A stretch of DNA of 64,000 bases from a virus. Lineage: Duplodnaviria > Heunggongvirae > Uroviricota > Caudoviricetes. Position 1 is the stretch's first letter. Each line of letters opens with the position of its first letter. Where the stretch lies: the IMG/VR virus record IMGVR_UViG_3300028048_001599; one strand, written 5' to 3'. The position numbers and the translations under genes were made by a program. This document shows, in pieces, positions 11,725-42,015 of this stretch. The notes below the pieces were generated by a model that did no database searches, was not told the origin of the DNA, and saw nothing but the letters and a program-made list of their open reading frames with translations.

Positions 11725-13179
11725 ATGTTTGTAGAACTGAGTGGAAAAATATTTGCTGGTATCTATTCAAAGAACAACGAAAATGGGGTTCTGAATAGAC
11801 GTAGACAAGACCTTATAACTAACTTTGCGGAGAATATATTCAAGGACGAGTATTTTGTATATTATTCAATTTTGAAAAGGTTTCCGAAGTTGGGTACTGT
11901 TGATGAAAAGTTTTTAGCTTTGTACCTTAATACAAATAAGGCAACATTTTTAAAAGAACGTAGCATAGATTTAGGGAAATATGCAGGGGTAGCCGATAGT
12001 TATAATGAGTTCTGCATAACTTGTATAAATACATATAAGGAATGTATGAATCATCCTGTAATTTCTGACGAGGAGTTCATTCTTGCTATTGAACAGTACA
12101 GGATTGAATACATAAATGAACAGTCAATTATTCTTATGCAGGACTCAGCTGCTATTATGACTGATGGTATGCCTTACGGTAGACGTGTTCTTAATGGTTT
12201 TCATGATATGCAGGCTTATATGAAAAGAGGACTACAAACACTTGAAAATCTCGATAATGGTTCATCACATATAGGTATTATAACTTATGGTGATAATGAA
12301 CCCGAAGACATGTCGAATAATCTTAAAACTATATGTGAATTTGGTATTGAACCACTGGACAAAGCAACAGGGGGTATGACTGAGGGTGATATGATTTCCA
12401 TTCTTGGTGTTGCTAAGGGTGGTAAATCAAGGTTTATGACCTATCTTGTGCATAGAGCACTTATGCAGGGTATCAATTGTGTTGTTTGGTCAGTCGAAAA
12501 CGGGGTAAAAGGTTGGGAAGCACTTTTAAGAGCAAGACATTTTGATTATAAGTATAATTCAACAAATGATATTACGTCACATTGTTTTATATCAGATAAT
12601 GAAATTCGTAAAGGTACATTATCTGGGGTACGTAAAGATAAGGAGGCGGCTTCTTGGCTTGACCTTAGAACGAACAAAGAGTATGGCAAACTTACAGTAA
12701 TTGATGAGCCTTTTGATATTAATTCATACATCGAAACGCTCGACACTGCGGTTAAACAGGGTTCAGCTCAGCTTGTAGCTGTTGACTATCTTCAGTTGAT
12801 TGGCGACAGTAATAATTCACGTAACCGTAATGAAGTTATTGCTGAAGCATATCAGAAATCTTTGAGGTACCTTAAGGCAAATAAACTTGTAGGTCTTTTT
12901 CCTGCACAGATTAAACAAACCTCTGTATCGAGTCTATCTTCATTAAAGACTGAGGAACTTGGTTCTGTTGAAACAAGAGATATTGCTGGTGCATCCTATG
13001 AAGTTGTAAAAACACCGGATATTAATATAGCTCTTATAGGCTCTGTTGAGGATATTAAGGTTGGACATCTTGCACTTGTGTCAATGCCATCAAGAAACTC
13101 AGCTCCGTTTGCACCAACCGATTTAAGTGTAGATTTTGGTGCTTGTAATTATATGGTAATGAATAAAGATAGGGGATAA
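11725..13179 (+). CDS. DnaB-like (SF4) replicative helicase
   Basis: Walker A GVAKGGKS, WSVEN, VAVDYLQL Walker B, PAQ motif; ATG 11725 after AAGGAG. Confidence 0.8.
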   Translation: MFVELSGKIFAGIYSKNNENGVLNRRRQDLITNFAENIFKDEYFVYYSILKRFPKLGTVDEKFLALYLNTNKATFLKERSIDLGKYAGVADSYNEFCITCINTYKECMNHPVISDEEFILAIEQYRIEYINEQSIILMQDSAAIMTDGMPYGRRVLNGFHDMQAYMKRGLQTLENLDNGSSHIGIITYGDNEPEDMSNNLKTICEFGIEPLDKATGGMTEGDMISILGVAKGGKSRFMTYLVHRALMQGINCVVWSVENGVKGWEALLRARHFDYKYNSTNDITSHCFISDNEIRKGTLSGVRKDKEAASWLDLRTNKEYGKLTVIDEPFDINSYIETLDTAVKQGSAQLVAVDYLQLIGDSNNSRNRNEVIAEAYQKSLRYLKANKLVGLFPAQIKQTSVSSLSSLKTEELGSVETRDIAGASYEVVKTPDINIALIGSVEDIKVGHLALVSMPSRNSAPFAPTDLSVDFGACNYMVMNKDRG

Positions 13180-29989: not shown

Positions 29990-30010
29990 TAAAATAAGGG
30001 GACGTCAGTT

Positions 30011-30100
30011 ATGCAAGGGGTAGGTACTGGTTCTGTGCATATCACAGGTATTGGTAATTATACTGGTTCAAAGACAGTGTACTTTAATATAGTTAAATAA
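30011..30100 (+). pseudogene. orphan fragment of the repeat module of the upstream surface protein
   Basis: encodes MQGVGTGSVHITGIGNYTGSKTVYFNIVK, in frame with 27827-29989 after TAA TAA. Confidence 0.6.
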
Positions 30101-30593: not shown

Positions 30594-30606
30594 TGGTCTT
30601 GATATG

Positions 30607-30638
30607 ATGGGAACGACAATTTGTCGTTCCCATTTTTT
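30607..30638 (+). terminator. rho-independent terminator
   Basis: ATGGGAACGACA-att-TGTCGTTCCCAT then TTTTT. Confidence 0.8.
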
Positions 30639-30810: not shown

Positions 30811-30839
30811 TTGACAAATTTGGAAATAGGTGTTATAAT
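30811..30839 (+). promoter_or_regulatory. sigmaA promoter P1 of the RNA operon
   Basis: TTGACA-17-TATAAT, TG extension, A-tract UP-like element. Confidence 0.85.
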
Positions 30840-30915: not shown

Positions 30916-30944
30916 TTGATATATTCTGAAAAAGTTGTTATAAT
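30916..30944 (+). promoter_or_regulatory. sigmaA promoter P2
   Basis: TTGATA-17-TATAAT, TG extension. Confidence 0.7.
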
Positions 30945-31015: not shown

Positions 31016-31044
31016 TTGACAAAGATGGAAAAATGTGTTATAAT
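31016..31044 (+). promoter_or_regulatory. sigmaA promoter P3
   Basis: TTGACA-17-TATAAT, TG extension, same AAAAAAGTG upstream as P1. Confidence 0.85.
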
Positions 31045-31317
31045 GAAAAAGCGGTAAAAAAGTAGGATGTTTCATGTAAATGGCTTCTTTTTTGGCTTTC
31101 ATTATTCTGTCCTCCGATTTACCAGAGTGATAGAATGTCTGGCATACATCGATTATTCCGCAAATACTCGATGGCAGTTGCTACTGAGCTGCATTTAGTA
31201 CCTTAGACCGCATTGGGTACTACCTCCTTTCTATCGGTAGCTGAACTCGAAAAGATGAGGGTGTCAACCTTATGGTTGACGAGTGTGATGTGGTGGAGGT
31301 TTCACACAGCTAAATAT

Positions 31318-31362
31318 GGTAGTAATGGTACTTTATTACAGGTTCGACTCCTGTAGCTACCT
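31318..31362 (+). ncRNA. armless tRNA-like minihelix 1
   Basis: GGTAGT/GCTACC stem + bulged A + ACAGG-TTCGACT-CCTGT T-arm, no D or anticodon arm. Confidence 0.6.
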
Positions 31363-31522
31363 GTGAACCGCTTGCAATTATGAGAAGTATGTTTTCAAAT
31401 TAGCAAGTAAAACCCAACCGTTGGCACATTGGGGGAGAACACCGGGGGTGTTTGTTGATTACTTGTGACCGGGAACAGTGGGGGAGGCAAGGTTACATGC
31501 TGCGGTTACTTGCCATTTATAT

Positions 31523-31593
31523 GATGGGAATGGATGGTTCTTGCAGACTTTGTTAGCTTTTGGAACTGGTCGGTTCGACTCCGACACCTGTCA
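31523..31593 (+). ncRNA. tRNA-like element 2 (minihelix with an inserted hairpin)
   Basis: GATGGG/CCTGTC stem + bulged A + GTCGG-TTCGACT-CCGAC T-arm. Confidence 0.55.
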
Positions 31594-31597
31594 ATGT

Positions 31598-31639
31598 GGT
31601 GGTGTACAAGTATGGTCGGTGCAACTCCGATAGCCACCT
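31598..31639 (+). ncRNA. armless tRNA-like minihelix 3
   Basis: GGTGGT/GCCACC stem + bulged A + GTCGG-TGCAACT-CCGAT T-arm. Confidence 0.55.
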
Positions 31640-32302
31640 AAAGATTATATATTGTTGATTTAGTAAGTCGCTGCTTTCTGATGTCTATGTGGGGGCTTGC
31701 GGAAGTGCAACAATATGGTAGTGTTCTAAGACACGAGATACGAACACTTTTAACCTGCTTTATAGCTGGTAACATTGGTATAATACCGTGACTTGTCAAG
31801 GATTACCTAAAACAAGGAGATGTTACCGATAGTGAGTGAGTACTTGCTATCCTCAGACTAAAAAATAAAAACTGAGGTATGGTCGGAAACGGCAAACAAA
31901 GCGGTGCTATGAGGTTATACCTACTCTAAGGCACTGTAAGGAAGGGGTTTCAAAACCACCGTTGGAAACATAAATAAACATTGAATAATACAGTATGGCA
32001 AGGTTGGGTCAGTTGTATTAGTGGGCGGTCACTTGAACATAAGGAGTGACAACAGACATAGCGAGGTGGCAGCTATGTTATTATAATTAAATTGCCGGTT
32101 CGTTGAGGTGTTAAGACTGAATGATTTTGCTATGGATTACCTAAAGCAAAAGAGAGGAACCTATGTTGCTCAGAGGTGTACTGAGGATTTGAGAAAGGCT
32201 GTAAACAGTAAATAAACACAAAATCGGAGTTATGCAAGGAGTTAAAATGCCTTTATGATTGTGGTGCATAACAGTAAAGTACAAGGTGGGGTACTTAAAT
32301 AT
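31640..32302 (+). ncRNA. large structured ncRNA, GOLLD-like
   Basis: ~660-nt ORF-free multi-hairpin segment next to tRNAs; motifs GTGGGCGGTCAC...GTGAC, GCGAGGTGGCAGC, GAATGATTTTGCT...AGCAAAAG resemble my recollection of GOLLD; not searched. Confidence 0.45.
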
Positions 32303-32346
32303 GGTAACACTGGTGTCTTGTATGAGTTCGATTCTCATAGTTATCT
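32303..32346 (+). ncRNA. armless tRNA-like minihelix 4
   Basis: GGTAAC/GTTATC stem + bulged A + ATGAG-TTCGATT-CTCAT T-arm. Confidence 0.6.
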
Positions 32347-32525
32347 GCTGGCACTCTGGAAATAGACAGGGCAAGTTTAGTTACTTAGTTCTTGTAAAAA
32401 CTGAGTCTGAATACTTATTATACTTAACGAATGTAGTAATACAGGGGGTAAGTTGCGGTAGCTGCTTGGCAACAGTGGAAACAATGTTCTAAAAGATGCC
32501 ACCTAATAATAATACTGGAAACAGT

Positions 32526-32565
32526 TGACAAAGCGGAAAGACGCTTGGCACTCGGACAGACGGGC
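32526..32565 (+). repeat. tandem GAAAGA-loop hairpin motif, copy 1
   Basis: TGACA-AAGCG-GAAAGA-CGCTT-GGCA-CTCG-GACAGA-CGGG. Confidence 0.7.
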
Positions 32566-32616
32566 TATCTTCGGATAGGTACTTTGAAAGTTAAATAAGT
32601 ACATACTCAAAAATAT

Positions 32617-32691
32617 GGCACCATAGTGGAAGTGGTTTATCACGCCACCCTTTCAAGGTGGAGATTCCGAGTTCGAACCTCGGTGGTGTCA
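32617..32691 (+). tRNA. trnE: tRNA-Glu(TTC)
   Basis: canonical cloverleaf, anticodon loop CTTTCAA; no encoded CCA. Confidence 0.92.
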
Positions 32692-32887
32692 CTAAAGATC
32701 ATTTACTTAGCTGGGAACATGATCTATATATTTAATCAGCTCGGAACTGTGAGAACTGTGCGTTGGACGTCTTACATATCTTACTGAGTAGGTGGTTAGA
32801 GGTAAGATACTTTTAAAAAATAGTTTAAAAAACTATTTATAAAATAAAGTTATTGTGTTATAATATATACATAATAAAAATAAACAT

Positions 32888-33222
32888 GGGGGTATGGTGG
32901 AATTGGCAGACACAAGGGACTTGCTGTTGACTGCTTGGATAAAACCAAGTATACCATAGGAAACTATGGGGAGTGCCTTTGGGGAAACCCTTAGAGTAGA
33001 AGTCGCCTAAACGGGGAATGTGTCAACAAAATCCCGTACCAATGCGAAGTGTAAGACTTCAGAAGTGTGTAGAGGCTATACAGCGACTACCTAAACCACA
33101 ATGTGGCATGGTAAAGAGTGAGTCCAGACTACAACGATATCAGTCGGCTATGGTGACATAGAGTAGTAAGAAAATCCCTCGGAGTAACATCCATACGGGT
33201 TCGAGTCCCGTTACCCCCACCA
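32888..33222 (+). tRNA. trnL: tRNA-Leu(TAA), intron-containing (exons 32888-32922 and 33171-33222)
   Basis: joined exons give AGGGA-CTTAAAA-TCCCT anticodon arm, long variable arm, T-arm, A73 + CCA. Confidence 0.88.
32923..33170 (+). mobile_element. group I intron (248 nt, ORF-less) in the tRNA-Leu anticodon
   Basis: follows U34, ends in omega-G; P3 AGTCGC/GCGACT, P4 CGGG/CCCG, R-like GTAGAGGCTA, S-like GAGTCC, P9 ACTAC/GTAGT. Confidence 0.85.
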
Positions 33223-33259
33223 TAAAAAAGAAGTGTAATTTAGCGAGGATATTAAATGT

Positions 33260-33784
33260 ATGGAATATCAAAGAGTACCTATTAAGACAGAGGGTTTTGA
33301 AGGATGTACTGTTGATACAGATGGTATATTATATAAGAATGATGGTACAAAATTTACATATTATGAAAACCATAAAGGCTATTATATGATATATCAAAGT
33401 GGATATATTCGTAAATCAGTACATAGTATTGTTGCTGAAACATTTATACATAATGATAGACCTGGTATAGCTACTATGGTTAATCATAAAGATGGGAATA
33501 AGCACAACAATTCTGTCGATAATCTTGAATGGGTTACATCATCTGAGAATGTAAGGCATGCAGTAGATGTACTTGGGGTAAATTATTCAAGTAATAACGG
33601 TAATGCAAGGGCAATAAAAGGAATAAATAAGTATGATTGTAGTGTTATATACTTTCCTACTATTGCAGATGCAGGCAGACATTTTAGACCCGATAATCCA
33701 GTTAGAGGAAAGGTTTCTATTTGGCGTGTACTTAAAGGTATGAGAAAATCTGTTTATGACTATTATTGGTATTATGACGATTGA
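33260..33784 (+). CDS. free-standing HNH homing endonuclease (HNH_3 + NUMOD1-like)
   Basis: HSIVAETF...VNHKDGNKHNNSVDNLEWVTSSEN..H; C-terminal F.TIADAGR. Confidence 0.9.
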   Translation: MEYQRVPIKTEGFEGCTVDTDGILYKNDGTKFTYYENHKGYYMIYQSGYIRKSVHSIVAETFIHNDRPGIATMVNHKDGNKHNNSVDNLEWVTSSENVRHAVDVLGVNYSSNNGNARAIKGINKYDCSVIYFPTIADAGRHFRPDNPVRGKVSIWRVLKGMRKSVYDYYWYYDD

Positions 33785-33801
33785 ATAAATCGTTATATAT
33801 A

Positions 33802-35833: not shown

Positions 35834-35911
35834 GATTCGGTAGTTCAGCTGGTCGTTAGAACACCGTCTATACCAAGGCGGAGGTCAGGGGTTCAAATCC
35901 TCTCCGAATCA
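35834..35911 (+). tRNA. tRNA-Asp-like body with 8-nt anticodon loop (TATACCAA), identity undetermined
   Basis: arms closely match tRNA-Asp at 42831; loop expanded and altered. Confidence 0.6.
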
Positions 35912-38855: not shown

Positions 38856-39130
38856 TGTTTTAAATTGTGGTCGGTATATTTTATATATATATATCGACCA
38901 TAATTTTATATTATTTACTTTATAAGTCTATAGTTTAACTCATATGAAAAAGCATTGTTGCTGTATTAAGTTAAAACTTATGTATATGTTAATACCTTAA
39001 TATAATTTAGTACATAAATATTAAATCTTCTATTAATAGTCATAATAAGACATAAGATAAAATATCACATTTATTCTTACATATTTTTTAGTAAGTAAAT
39101 ATTAATTTTAATGGAAAGGTGTTAATGATT

Positions 39131-41332
39131 ATGCGGATTATTAAGCGAGATTCTTCAGAAGAGATATTTGACGTTAATAAGATTGTGAACGCTATTTCAA
39201 AGGCTAATTCTGCCACAGATGAAAATAATATAGCACCTGAGAAAATCAGGGATATAGCTGAGTATGTAGAATATAAATGTTCTAAATTAAGTCGAGCTGT
39301 ATCTGTTGAAGAAATTCAGGACATGGTAGAGAATCAGATTATGGCTGTTGGTGCATTTGAAGTAGCAAGAAATTATGTACGGTATCGTTATAAGAGGTCA
39401 CTTGAAAGACAGACTTCTGTTACTGACGCAAAAATTATCAGTCTTATTGAATGTAACAATGAAGAAGCAAAACAGGAGAACAGTAATAAAAACCCAGCTA
39501 TAAATAGTGTTCAGCGAGACTACATGGCAGGTGAAGTAAGCCGTGATTTAACAAAGCGTAAGTTACTCCCACCTGAAATTGTAGAAGCTCACGAAAGGGG
39601 TATTATACATTTCCATGATACTGATTACTATGCTCAGCACATGCACAATTGTGACCTTGTAAATCTTGAGGATATGTTACAAAATGGGACAGTTATTAGT
39701 GGTACAATGATAGAAAAGCCACACAGTTTTTCTACAGCTTGTAACATTGCAACTCAGATAATAGCACAGGTGGCATCTAATCAATACGGCGGTCAGAGTA
39801 TAAGTCTTACCCATCTTGCTCCTTTTGTTGACATTTCAAGAAAAAAGATTAAAAATGCAATTATCGAGGAACTTGAAGTGACTGGAACAGAGATGTCCGA
39901 GGAAAATATAAATAAGATTACTGAAATGCGTTTAAGAAAAGAGATTGAAAAAGGTATTCAGACTATACAGTATCAGGTTGTAACCTTACTCACAACTAAT
40001 GGTCAAGCACCTTTCTTATCTGTATATATGTACCTTAACGAGGCTCGTAATGAACAGGAAAAAGCAGATCTTGCCGTGATTATTGAAGAAACGTTAAAAC
40101 AAAGAATATTAGGGGTAAAAAACGAGAAGGGTGTAAGTATTACACCAGCTTTTCCGAAGTTAATATATGTTCTTGAAGAAGATAATATTCACGAAGGTGA
40201 TAAATATTGGGATTTGACAGTGCTTGCTGCAAAATGCACTGCCAAGAGAATGGTTCCTGATTACATATCAGAAAAGGTGATGCTTGAGTTAAAAGGTGAT
40301 GTATACACATGTATGGGTTGTCGTAGTTTCTTAACACCTGATGATTTTACAGATAAGGGTGTCGGAAACATTGCGAGAGCTAAAAATTATATACCTGGTA
40401 AACATAGATATTATGGTCGTTTCAATCAAGGGGTAGTTACTGTAAATCTTGTGGATATTGGTTTATCTGCAAATAAAGATATGAACAAATTCTGGGAAAT
40501 ATTCGATACAAGAATGGCACTTTGTCACAAAGCTTTAAGATGTAGACATGAGCGTCTAAAGGGTACACTGTCAGATGCAGCTCCTATTTTGTGGCAATAT
40601 GGGGCACTTGCACGTCTTGATAAGGGTGAAAAGATTGACGAATTACTGTATAATGGTTATTCAACAATATCATTGGGGTATGCTGGACTTTGGGAGTGTG
40701 TATACAGTCTTATAGGCAAGAAGTTGACTGAGCCAGAGGGTAAAGAACTCGGACTTGAGATTATGCGTAAACTTAATGAATACTGTGCTAAATGGCGGTC
40801 TGAGGAAAACATAGCTTATAGTTTATACGGTACACCTCTTGAGTCTACCACATATAAGTTTGCAAGATGTTTACAGCAACGTTTTGGTGTCATAAAGGGG
40901 GTAACAGATAAGAACTACATTACTAATTCTTATCATGTACATGTAACTGAACCTATTAACGCATTTGATAAACTTAAGATTGAATCAGAATTTCAGGCTC
41001 TTTCACCAGGTGGTGCTATAAGTTATGTAGAAGTTCCAAACATGACAAATAATATACCTGCTGTGTTAGCAATAATTCAATTTATATACGATAACATCAT
41101 GTATGCAGAACTAAACACAAAGAGTGATTATTGTCAATGTTGTGGGTATGATGGTGAAATTGAGATTGTAAAAGATGATGACAAACTCATTTGGAAATGT
41201 CCTAACTGTGGTAATACTGACCAGGACAAGTTAAATGTTGCAAGACGTACTTGTGGCTATATTGGGACTCAGTTTTGGAATCAGGGGCGTACTCAGGAGA
41301 TAAAAGAACGTGTTATTCATCTTTGTTGTTAA
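39131..41332 (+). CDS. nrdD: anaerobic (class III) ribonucleoside-triphosphate reductase
   Basis: N-terminal ATP cone (IIKRD...FD..KI..AI), HFHDTDY, CMGCRS, FNQGVV, C-terminal CxxC...CxxC and RRTCGYIG glycyl-radical loop. Confidence 0.96.
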   Translation: MRIIKRDSSEEIFDVNKIVNAISKANSATDENNIAPEKIRDIAEYVEYKCSKLSRAVSVEEIQDMVENQIMAVGAFEVARNYVRYRYKRSLERQTSVTDAKIISLIECNNEEAKQENSNKNPAINSVQRDYMAGEVSRDLTKRKLLPPEIVEAHERGIIHFHDTDYYAQHMHNCDLVNLEDMLQNGTVISGTMIEKPHSFSTACNIATQIIAQVASNQYGGQSISLTHLAPFVDISRKKIKNAIIEELEVTGTEMSEENINKITEMRLRKEIEKGIQTIQYQVVTLLTTNGQAPFLSVYMYLNEARNEQEKADLAVIIEETLKQRILGVKNEKGVSITPAFPKLIYVLEEDNIHEGDKYWDLTVLAAKCTAKRMVPDYISEKVMLELKGDVYTCMGCRSFLTPDDFTDKGVGNIARAKNYIPGKHRYYGRFNQGVVTVNLVDIGLSANKDMNKFWEIFDTRMALCHKALRCRHERLKGTLSDAAPILWQYGALARLDKGEKIDELLYNGYSTISLGYAGLWECVYSLIGKKLTEPEGKELGLEIMRKLNEYCAKWRSEENIAYSLYGTPLESTTYKFARCLQQRFGVIKGVTDKNYITNSYHVHVTEPINAFDKLKIESEFQALSPGGAISYVEVPNMTNNIPAVLAIIQFIYDNIMYAELNTKSDYCQCCGYDGEIEIVKDDDKLIWKCPNCGNTDQDKLNVARRTCGYIGTQFWNQGRTQEIKERVIHLCC

Positions 41333-41487: not shown

Positions 41488-41555
41488 GCAGGTATACAGG
41501 TTCGAGTCCTGTAAAGACAAGTTCGATTCTTGTCAGTGTATGGTACGAAACCTGC
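41488..41555 (+). ncRNA. element with two tandem T-loop hairpins inside a closing stem
   Basis: GCAGGT/ACCTGC enclosing TACAGG-TTCGAGT-CCTGTA and GACAAG-TTCGATT-CTTGTC. Confidence 0.5.
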
Positions 41556-41636: not shown

Positions 41637-42015
41637 GGGGATGTAACGGTTTCGACAGGGTACGTGAGGTATGTTAAGCAAGCAGGCGGTCAGTCGCCTT
41701 ATATACTGAAACTTCAAAATAAACGCTACTAGAAATAGCAGACCTGTTGCACTTGCTGCCTGATTGGGCAGTAGCAACAGCTTGAGGCATGACCTCAAGT
41801 GCATCTTATGATAGTACCACGGATTGTAAGATGTATGGACAAGTGGTGAACGAAGTAGGGGTATGTCAAGACCACGACTTTGTATATTGACTACTGTGGT
41901 ATAAAACCTGTTTGTCGGTGTTATACTTTGGGAAATTTTAATAGATAAACTAAGCTTGTAGAAAAACATATTGAAGGTATTTTGGACAGGGGTTCGATTC
42001 CCCTCATCTCCACCA
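41637..42015 (+). ncRNA. ssrA: tmRNA; predicted tag (A)ATRNSRPVALAA* at 41725-41763
   Basis: GGGGATGTAACGGTTTCGAC 5' end, G3-U70, GGTTCGATTCC T arm, ACCA end; tag ends ALAA. Confidence 0.95.

Follow-up and report, generated by a model that had tools for sequence, protein, structure and literature searches.

The 64,000-nt stretch of viral DNA analysed here (IMG/VR record IMGVR_UViG_3300028048_001599; called the window, at its full length) carries between positions 31318 and 32346 four tRNA-like elements, designated E1 to E4, which share a fold made of an acceptor stem stacked on a T arm. Directly supported are this fold, its conservation, the location of the elements in a single transcript and the high abundance of the RNA. 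We read E1, E3 and E4, and possibly E2, as candidate processing signals similar to t-elements, at which RNase P and RNase Z would cut the transcript, and give this reading about an even chance of being correct.

Architecture and conservation of E1 to E4

Both strands were scanned for a pattern that combines a stem of 5 bp, the loop T[TG]C[AG]A.., a linker of 5–60 nt and a closing stem of 6–7 bp. On the plus strand of the window, E1 to E4 and true tRNAs were detected and nothing else; the minus strand gave no match. The paired cores were 31318-31361, 31523-31592, 31598-31638, and 32303-32345, with a single unpaired base behind each, and reading of the sequence likewise placed the four elements where the initial annotation had reported them. 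All four are built from an acceptor stem of 6 bp, a purine-purine layer 7, a T stem of 5 bp and a T-loop of 7 nt. The sequences are GGTAGT / 14-nt linker / ACAGG-TTCGACT-CCTGT / A / GCTACC for E1, GATGGG / 40-nt linker with hairpin / GTCGG-TTCGACT-CCGAC / A / CCTGTC for E2, GGTGGT / 11 nt / GTCGG-TGCAACT-CCGAT / A / GCCACC for E3, and GGTAAC / 13 nt / ATGAG-TTCGATT-CTCAT / A / GTTATC for E4. Linkers are 9–16 nt long in the armless elements and 40 nt in E2, where the inserted hairpin described earlier was recovered and found to be irregular. E1 and E2 carry the T-arm motif GGTTCGACTCC; E4 (GAGTTCGATTCTC) and E3 (CGGTGCAACTCC) deviate from GGTTCRANYCC, with the 5-bp stem and 7-nt loop retained.

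The A between the two stems had been described as bulged. Its position was right, and it is better read as part of a purine-purine mismatch at 7:66 (A.A in E1, E2, and E4; G.A in E3) that keeps a stack of 6 + 1 + 5 = 12 layers, as in the acceptor/T-arm helix of tRNA. True tRNAs caught by the scan had seven standard acceptor pairs each, compared with six pairs plus one unpaired base per strand in E1 to E4. ARAGORN and the Rfam tRNA model (RF00005) made no call on E2 to E4, in which a cloverleaf is lacking, and an acceptor of seven standard pairs was seen in none of the variants described below, 7:66 being A.A, G.A, or G.G in all of them. Minimum free energy folding recovered the proposed structure for 4 of 4 elements and agreed with the scan on the shared architecture and on the lack of anticodon arms in E1, E3, and E4, as had been claimed. 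The energies did not differ significantly from those of shuffled sequences (z from −0.3 to −1.7), and because fold energies alone are unremarkable, the case rests on comparison and not on thermodynamics.

About six distinct matches, most of them parts of real tRNAs, came up when 1.55 Mb of DNA from other phage loci were scanned in this way; chance occurrence of three armless copies within 1 kb is far beyond expectation. The covariance model R1, which we built from the E1, E3, and E4 sequences aligned below, found no match above 20 bits in the window besides E1, E3, and E4, and no genuine match in 1.59 Mb of other phage loci. Among 80 IMG/VR loci reached via the NrdD protein, no such element was present, and the best model match was the 3′ part of a real tRNA-Leu. 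A match of 19.6 bits at 31768-31808, between E3 and E4, is without a T arm and was dropped.

The leader ATAT precedes E1, E2, and E4, and ATGT precedes E3. ATAT also occupies positions −4 to −1 of six true tRNAs in the window, U at −1 being found in nearly all, which upholds the earlier remark that elements and tRNAs share a leader. CCA is encoded in none of the four elements, and reading of the trailers showed that most true tRNAs of the phage likewise lack it.

The window belongs to a large phage-like element contained in cattle and sheep rumen samples. No close relative of the window region was found in IMG/VR or INPHARED. Rumen assemblies in ENA yielded contigs L082-L084, with 97–99% identity to the window, and a sister lineage (L085), which was reached via an NrdD 93% identical and shows approximately 75–92% identity in this region. 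Further contigs of both lineages were recruited through a small gene upstream, bringing the set to 19 loci, 15 of lineage A (window type) and 4 of lineage B (sister). The order is E1 – 160 nt – E2 – E3 – 663 nt – E4 in lineage A and E1 – 169 nt – E3 – 467 nt – E4 in lineage B; E1, E3, and E4 lie at the same RNA boundaries in both, and E2 with its leader corresponds to an exact cassette-sized gap in L085.

Thirteen distinct sequences of E1, E3, and E4 were aligned on the 11-pair structure. Standard pairs filled 99.3% of the cells (13 variants, 11 pairs), changes on both sides occurred in 7 of the 11 pairs, and the covariation score was 0.641 versus at most 0.40 for a slid partner, a value reached in 0 of 500 shuffles, although independence is overstated by these statistics, because the signal lies in large part between paralogues and the structure had been derived from the same sequences. 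The stems thus covary, as first proposed. G1-C72 was present in 13 of 13 variants, and pair 3 was U-A in all, with no G3:U70. Between the window and the lineage B contig L090, 3 of 66 stem bases differed, each turning a G.U into an A-U; within lineage A, one G.U to G-C change was found in E4 and one U.G to U-A change in E3. Lineage A has U.G and lineage B has U-A at acceptor pair 6 of E1; pair 6 of E3 is U.G or U-A with 7:66 being G.A or G.G, and pair 2 of E4 occurs as G.U, G-C, and A-U. The sole break in pairing was a C.A in E1 of a single contig, L085. The U at −1 was retained in the window and L085 copies.

Stems were 95% conserved between the lineages. The E1 linker differed at about half of its positions and the E3 linker in length, and the linker motif A(A/C)TGG suggested by the initial annotation did not hold up, AATGG being replaced by AGGGAT in E1 orthologues. 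The discriminator was T or A in E1, E3, and E4, both within and between lineages. Identity of whole elements between lineages was 81%, 88%, and 96%, compared with 74–76% for the adjacent RNA-A and RNA-B (Table 1). These patterns fit selection on the helix geometry of the minihelices and not on their sequence identity. Aminoacylation identity is argued against, because linkers and discriminator vary while the stems keep pairing.

Decay has to be considered as well, since the elements could be functionless remnants of tRNA genes whose D and anticodon arms were lost by internal deletion. They open a tRNA array in which several tRNAs are aberrant, E2 was gained or lost as a cassette, and the T-loop of E3 is degenerate. 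However, three independent deletions would not yield the same 6+1+5 layout with a purine-purine mismatch, the stems are better conserved than the adjacent RNA with every fixed change keeping the pairing, and all copies lie on the transcribed strand of a highly expressed unit. We therefore consider decay very unlikely.

Between the window and L085, homology breaks near 32008 and resumes 10 nt before E4. In contig L095 (5778-6429), E4 is duplicated around an inserted module, which contains a 93-aa open reading frame (ORF; membrane-protein-like) and the tail of the lineage B RNA and ends with the second, lineage-B-type E4; this arrangement suggests that recombination took place at a minihelix. 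From the breaks and resumptions of homology and from the L095 module, the elements appear to act as module boundaries at the DNA level too.

Table 1. Coordinates of the tRNA-like elements, the RNAs next to them and the promoters upstream
Feature	Position	Strand	Remarks
E1, armless tRNA-like minihelix	31318-31362	+	Including discriminator T; 61.2 bits with model R1; in 19 loci
E2, tRNA-like, 40-nt linker with irregular hairpin	31523-31593	+	Lineage A only: 15 loci, absent in 4
E3, armless minihelix, unusual T-loop TGCAACT	31598-31639	+	51.8 bits, own covariance model
E4, armless minihelix	32303-32346	+	59.1 bits, own covariance model
RNA-A, structured leader RNA	31050-31317	+	Fold z −2.69; invariant 29-nt motif 31233-31261, then two hairpins
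RNA-B, 160-nt structured RNA between E1 and E2/E3	31363-31522	+	Conserved in lineage B
RNA-C, unclassified large RNA	31640-32302	+	Fold z −2.63; 5′ domain conserved, tail lineage-specific
RNA-D, spacer RNA, E4 to next tRNA	32347-32616	+	First 200 nt 92% identical to lineage B
tRNA-Glu(UUC), first canonical tRNA of array	32617-32692	+	ATAT leader as in elements
Three tandem consensus promoters	30811-30839, 30916-30944, 31016-31044	+	Hexamers 12/12, 11/12, 12/12; extended −10 TG in all

The transcript and the RNAs between the elements

A terminator at 30606-30634 closes the preceding gene, and three promoters follow it. From 31044 to 32836, no promoter above chance and no terminator were found, the next above-chance promoter-like site being at 32836; E1 to E4 and the flanking RNAs therefore share one transcript and would need cutting.

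Metatranscriptomes were used as assembled contigs (Logan), which reveal neither RNA ends nor proportions. The region was present in four metatranscriptomes from four studies. Contigs of run X2 were identical to the window and had a depth of 9.8 over the upstream Big_2 gene versus 212 over 31084-33175, and those of run X17 had a depth of 9–10 over the Big_2 gene versus 459 over the RNA stretch, so that the ratio of RNA stretch to neighbouring gene was 20–45× in two metatranscriptomes. The RNA region is strongly expressed, because contaminating DNA would give equal depth, and expression as a unit is indicated by the one contig spanning 31084-33175. A role in processing is made plausible by the single-transcript context and the strong RNA signal.

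The adapter-flanked contig ends, 31084 in X2 and 31607 and 32066 in X18, coincide with no element boundary. In X17, a gap between contigs omits E4 (end at 32304, next start at 32357). This gap, seen in one study only, was not counted as evidence of processing, because 32304 is a G/A polymorphism, 32344, 32346, and 32351 vary too, and such sites break unitigs. Contigs of two studies stop at 32066 in RNA-C, those being X18, with the adapter directly behind, and X20; this position is possibly an internal RNA boundary or an assembly effect of the nearby ACATAAGG repeat.

Conserved RNAs abut each element. In RNA-B, five predicted pairs are kept via changes on both sides between the lineages. RNA-C is 663 nt long, ORF-poor, and bracketed exactly by E3 and E4, as the initial annotation had proposed for an RNA of about 660 nt; the notion of a single RNA did not survive comparison, for the sister lineage has only the 5′ domain from 31640 to about 32008 (approximately 370 nt) in common with the window. 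Over its first 270 nt, RNA-C shows 93% identity between lineages, well above RNA-A and RNA-B, and L085 has unrelated sequence in place of the tail at 32009-32292. The same RNA had been called GOLLD-like. No Rfam match to support this was obtained at E ≤ 10 (1.6 kb, lax filters) or E ≤ 5 (6.5 kb), whereas two ROOL RNAs were found in the window at 150–173 bits; across 31040-32620, no Rfam family was returned except a sub-threshold tRNA match. GOLLD has a conserved 3′ domain and a variable 5′ region (10.1101/2024.12.08.627333), and RNA-C is the reverse, with a conserved 5′ part and a variable 3′ part. The label should be dropped because of the missing Rfam match and this opposite polarity of conservation.

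In RNA-A, the invariant 29-nt motif ATCGGTAGCTGAACTCGAAAAGATGAGGG and the two hairpins behind it occupy 31233-31310, with further copies in L085 at 697-770 and 1184-1262. The motif is identical in 3 of 3 copies (window and L085), the hairpin stems covary between copies, and the loops, TTATG and GGTGGTGG, are conserved; motif and hairpins have no Rfam match. Each copy of the motif lies downstream of a consensus promoter. An exact 26-mer of the motif had 0 matches in IMG/VR, and a 21-mer gave two chance matches in JGI metagenomes, which look like part of an unrelated coding gene.

Candidate processing signals and competing readings

Under the reading that we favour, E1, E3, and E4 would be minimal acceptor/T-arm copies within one long, promoter-driven noncoding transcript. 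Host RNase P would cut 5′ of G+1, after the U at −1, thereby giving the upstream RNA its 3′ end; host RNase Z would cut after the unpaired discriminator, given that no CCA is encoded, and form the 5′ end of the downstream RNA. The expected products would be RNA-A, RNA-B, RNA-C, and RNA-D as separate molecules, together with minihelices of 42–45 nt. RNase P measures the stack of T-stem-loop and acceptor from the elbow (PMC4919913), and RNase Z clamps the acceptor/T-arm “minihelix” (PMC11996679). Punctuation of the transcript is the most economical explanation because it accounts at once for the geometry, the U at −1 with G1-C72, the absence of CCA, and a single transcript in which the boundary positions are conserved.

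Similar signals are known elsewhere. In plant mitochondria, t-elements direct RNase P and RNase Z cuts at mRNA ends (PMC1920247), and a t-element upstream of 5S rRNA in Haloferax has been used to release engineered CRISPR RNA (PMC4326828). Known t-elements are read by both enzymes, and after excision they can remain as small RNAs (PMC1920247, PMC4326828). E1 to E4 resemble them in having a non-decoding tRNA-like fold with a T-arm motif and in lying inside a longer transcript beside other RNAs, as seen here in the transcript context and the abutting conserved RNAs. The known t-elements are organellar or archaeal, have mostly a non-canonical cloverleaf, and flank mRNAs or 5S rRNA, whereas E1 to E4, known from sequence, come from a phage of an apparent Bacillota host, have no D or anticodon arms and a fixed 7:66 mismatch, and separate large noncoding RNAs (ncRNAs).

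McClain, Guerrier-Takada and Altman in 1987 and Francklyn and Schimmel in 1989 reportedly used synthetic acceptor/T-arm minihelices as minimal enzyme substrates. Such minihelices (substrates of RNase P, RNase Z, the CCA-adding enzyme, and synthetases) form the same 12-layer coaxial hairpin, which is enough for end-processing enzymes. They are laboratory constructs without a linker bulge, whereas E1, E3, and E4 are natural, with a bulge of 9–16 nt in the 5′ strand and a mismatch at the junction. Minihelix substrates of end-processing enzymes are also treated in PMC11996679 and PMC9976931.

The tRNA-like domain of transfer-messenger RNA (tmRNA; RF00023; window copy at 41637-42015) likewise has the acceptor on the T arm and an unpaired substitute for the D-loop. 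It differs in seven acceptor pairs, G3:U70, an encoded CCA (here ACCA), and a body with the tag frame where the minihelices have 9–16 nt; in E1 to E4, pair 3 is U-A and no CCA is present. The mascRNA and MEN-beta RNAs (RF01684; PMC8457004) lie at the end of a long ncRNA, where RNase P makes the 3′ end and RNase Z cleavage and CCA addition follow. These RNAs come from eukaryotes, and their fold is a cloverleaf in which the anticodon loop is reduced. The RF01684 model had no match on E1 to E4, its one weak match in the region (21 bits) falling on the true tRNA at 35834.

Phages T4 and P1/P7 provide further non-decoding RNAs matured by host RNase P, namely the species 1 and 2 RNAs and C4 RNA, the former being about 120–140 nt long and located within the phage tRNA cluster. 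All of these are longer, have other folds, and are not repeated spacers between large ncRNAs as found here. Y RNAs of the YrlA type (PMC4201824) resemble the elements in mimicking tRNA with a T arm and in occurring in a genome encoding Ro60, and YrlA of M. smegmatis is cut by RNase P and receives CCA (PMC4201824). YrlA is circularly permuted relative to tRNA and has a D arm and a Ro60-binding stem, none of which is present in E1 to E4; Rfam scans gave no YrlA match, and the parts of E1 to E4 follow each other as in a normal tRNA, their acceptor ends being open.

Several observations weigh against cleavage by RNase P and RNase Z at the elements. E2, to which the initial annotation had extended the punctuation role, adjoins E3, separates nothing, and is absent from the sister lineage; punctuation offers no explanation for it. 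The acceptor has six pairs and a mismatch where tRNA has seven pairs. With G at position 55 of the T-loop and a linker without GG, E3 may lack a tRNA-like elbow. The 3′ strand of E1 can also pair with GGTAGCT at 31236, giving the composite tRNA-like fold discussed below. Finally, every element junction was bridged by RNA contigs of one or more runs, from which it follows that precursors or permanently joined forms occur; the deepest contig of X18 (31607-32066), with a depth of 70 and adapter at each end, starts within E3 and continues into RNA-C, and uncut E3/RNA-C molecules therefore exist.

The bridging contigs bring up the possibility that cleavage affects a single side of the elements, as it would if RNase P acted alone, and that they stay in place as tRNA-like end caps in E3-RNA-C and E4-RNA-D, where the paired 5′ end would shield the RNA from 5′ exonuclease. 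A conserved RNA body directly follows each conserved element, the X18 contig is unbroken from position 10 of E3 into RNA-C, and contigs of X2 and X17 also bridge E3 and RNA-C. However, contigs show neither ends nor proportions, and the same runs bridge the 5′ sides of the elements too; moreover, a stack accepted by RNase P should be accepted by RNase Z as well, with no CCA to block the latter. Retention as end caps is unlikely on balance, with a low but appreciable probability.

A comparably low probability is assigned to the view that free, CCA-tailed tRNA mimics of 42–45 nt are the functional product, that they serve as decoys or competitors for a reader of acceptor ends, and that release of the neighbouring RNAs is a by-product. 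Possible targets of such decoys would be a toxin, a defence nuclease, the CCA-adding enzyme, or EF-Tu. The conserved structure agrees with this, as do the presence of a Ro60 gene in the phage and the persistence of E2 in 15 loci without a role in punctuation; in addition, the purine-purine mismatch at 7:66 in 4 of 4 elements, where the true tRNAs caught by the scan have seven pairs, suggests more than simple mimicry. On the other side, the T/A variation of the discriminator and the divergence of about 50% in the E1 linker argue against a sequence-specific partner or aminoacylation identity, no G3:U70 is present, and E2 is dispensable in lineage B.

The composite fold would make E1 the 3′ part of a 127-nt tRNA-like RNA (31236-31362), in which GGTAGCT/AGCTACC would form an acceptor of 7 bp and which would also have a D arm, a hairpin at the anticodon position, and a 58-nt insert. 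Its scores with the Rfam tRNA model were 24.4 bits for the window and 24.3 bits for L090 (lineage B), and its acceptor has seven perfect pairs in lineage A. Both scores fall short of the gathering score (29), the loop at the “anticodon” is 6 nt long, and U33 is missing in the paralogous copy. A G>A change of the 3′ strand in lineage B leaves C.A when GGTAGCT is the partner and forms U-A when the local GGTAGT is; furthermore, the invariant motif and both hairpins recur in L085 at about 700-770 without a T arm or 3′ strand behind them. Because of the loop size, the L085 copy of the motif, and the lineage B change that favours the local strand, the local minihelix is preferred, and the composite is an improbable, minor rival. 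Switching of E1 between the local and the composite pairing is possible. Assignment of E1 to a D-arm-swapped tRNA-Ile(UAU) was also considered and was rejected, the hairpin loop having 6 nt and U33 being missing in the paralogue.

More speculatively, giant phages of rumen Bacillota might carry an “RNA factory” organized like an rRNA operon, in which natural armless minihelices, as the smallest substrates possible for RNase P and RNase Z, would be exchangeable cassette boundaries that release unclassified large ncRNAs and also accumulate as CCA-tagged mimics of acceptor ends, the 7:66 mismatch barring them from translation while they engage or soak up a host reader of tRNA acceptor ends. This fuller scheme appears rather improbable.

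A literature search turned up t-elements, mascRNA, and Y RNAs, but no account of phage RNA operons in which armless minihelices serve as spacers. Should cutting by RNase P and RNase Z be confirmed, the elements would represent a bacterial-virus counterpart of organellar tRNA punctuation in minimal form, by which a phage would mature several large structured RNAs from one transcript with host tRNA enzymes only. Confirmed cuts would also show where at least three highly expressed, unclassified phage RNAs truly begin and end, which must be known before they can be studied structurally, as done for ROOL and GOLLD. The 42–45-nt design could become a compact natural processing tag for the release of RNA in Bacillota. 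Since tRNA finders miss such elements, phage tRNA arrays are probably under-annotated for them.

The surrounding RNA-rich region

From about 30.8 to 47 kb, the plus strand is abundant in RNA genes and has nearly no protein genes. ARAGORN made 16 calls in this region, including one tmRNA. The only large ORFs encode a Ro60 homologue (TROVE and vWA_Ro60) and NrdD, and a Pfam search of ten neighbouring ORFs found no tRNA-processing enzyme. NrdD, encoded at 39119-41332, has 80–81% identity to many proteins that NCBI names as Ruminococcus sp. (proteins of metagenome-assembled genomes). This similarity hints at a Bacillota host for the phage and at a recent capture of the NrdD gene. IMG/VR searches with the Big_2 protein gave one locus, which is unrelated, and those with Ro60 gave none; INPHARED phages matched the tRNA-Glu part only.

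The tRNA-Glu with its flank (32614-32886) is missing from genomes of the L082, L083, and L085 types, where the joint is 32614>32886. RNA contigs of two runs skip the tRNA-Glu at the same joint, which resembles gain or loss of a cassette. An ORF for an HNH endonuclease (33260-33784; region 33223-33800) is absent from L082 and present in L085 and L098, as fits a mobile insertion. L082, L098, and other relatives have an extra gene of 413 aa, with no Pfam match, between the Big_2 gene and a 59-aa gene; the window is without it at 30002-30025, and the X17 RNA contig has 1173 extra letters at that joint. Upstream of tRNA-Met and the tmRNA, two tandem T-arm-like hairpins were observed at 41495-41533, ACAGG-TTCGAGT-CCTGT followed by GACAAG-TTCGATT-CTTGTC. 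The scan found no acceptor stem for them, and both are kept in L085 at 13063-13100.

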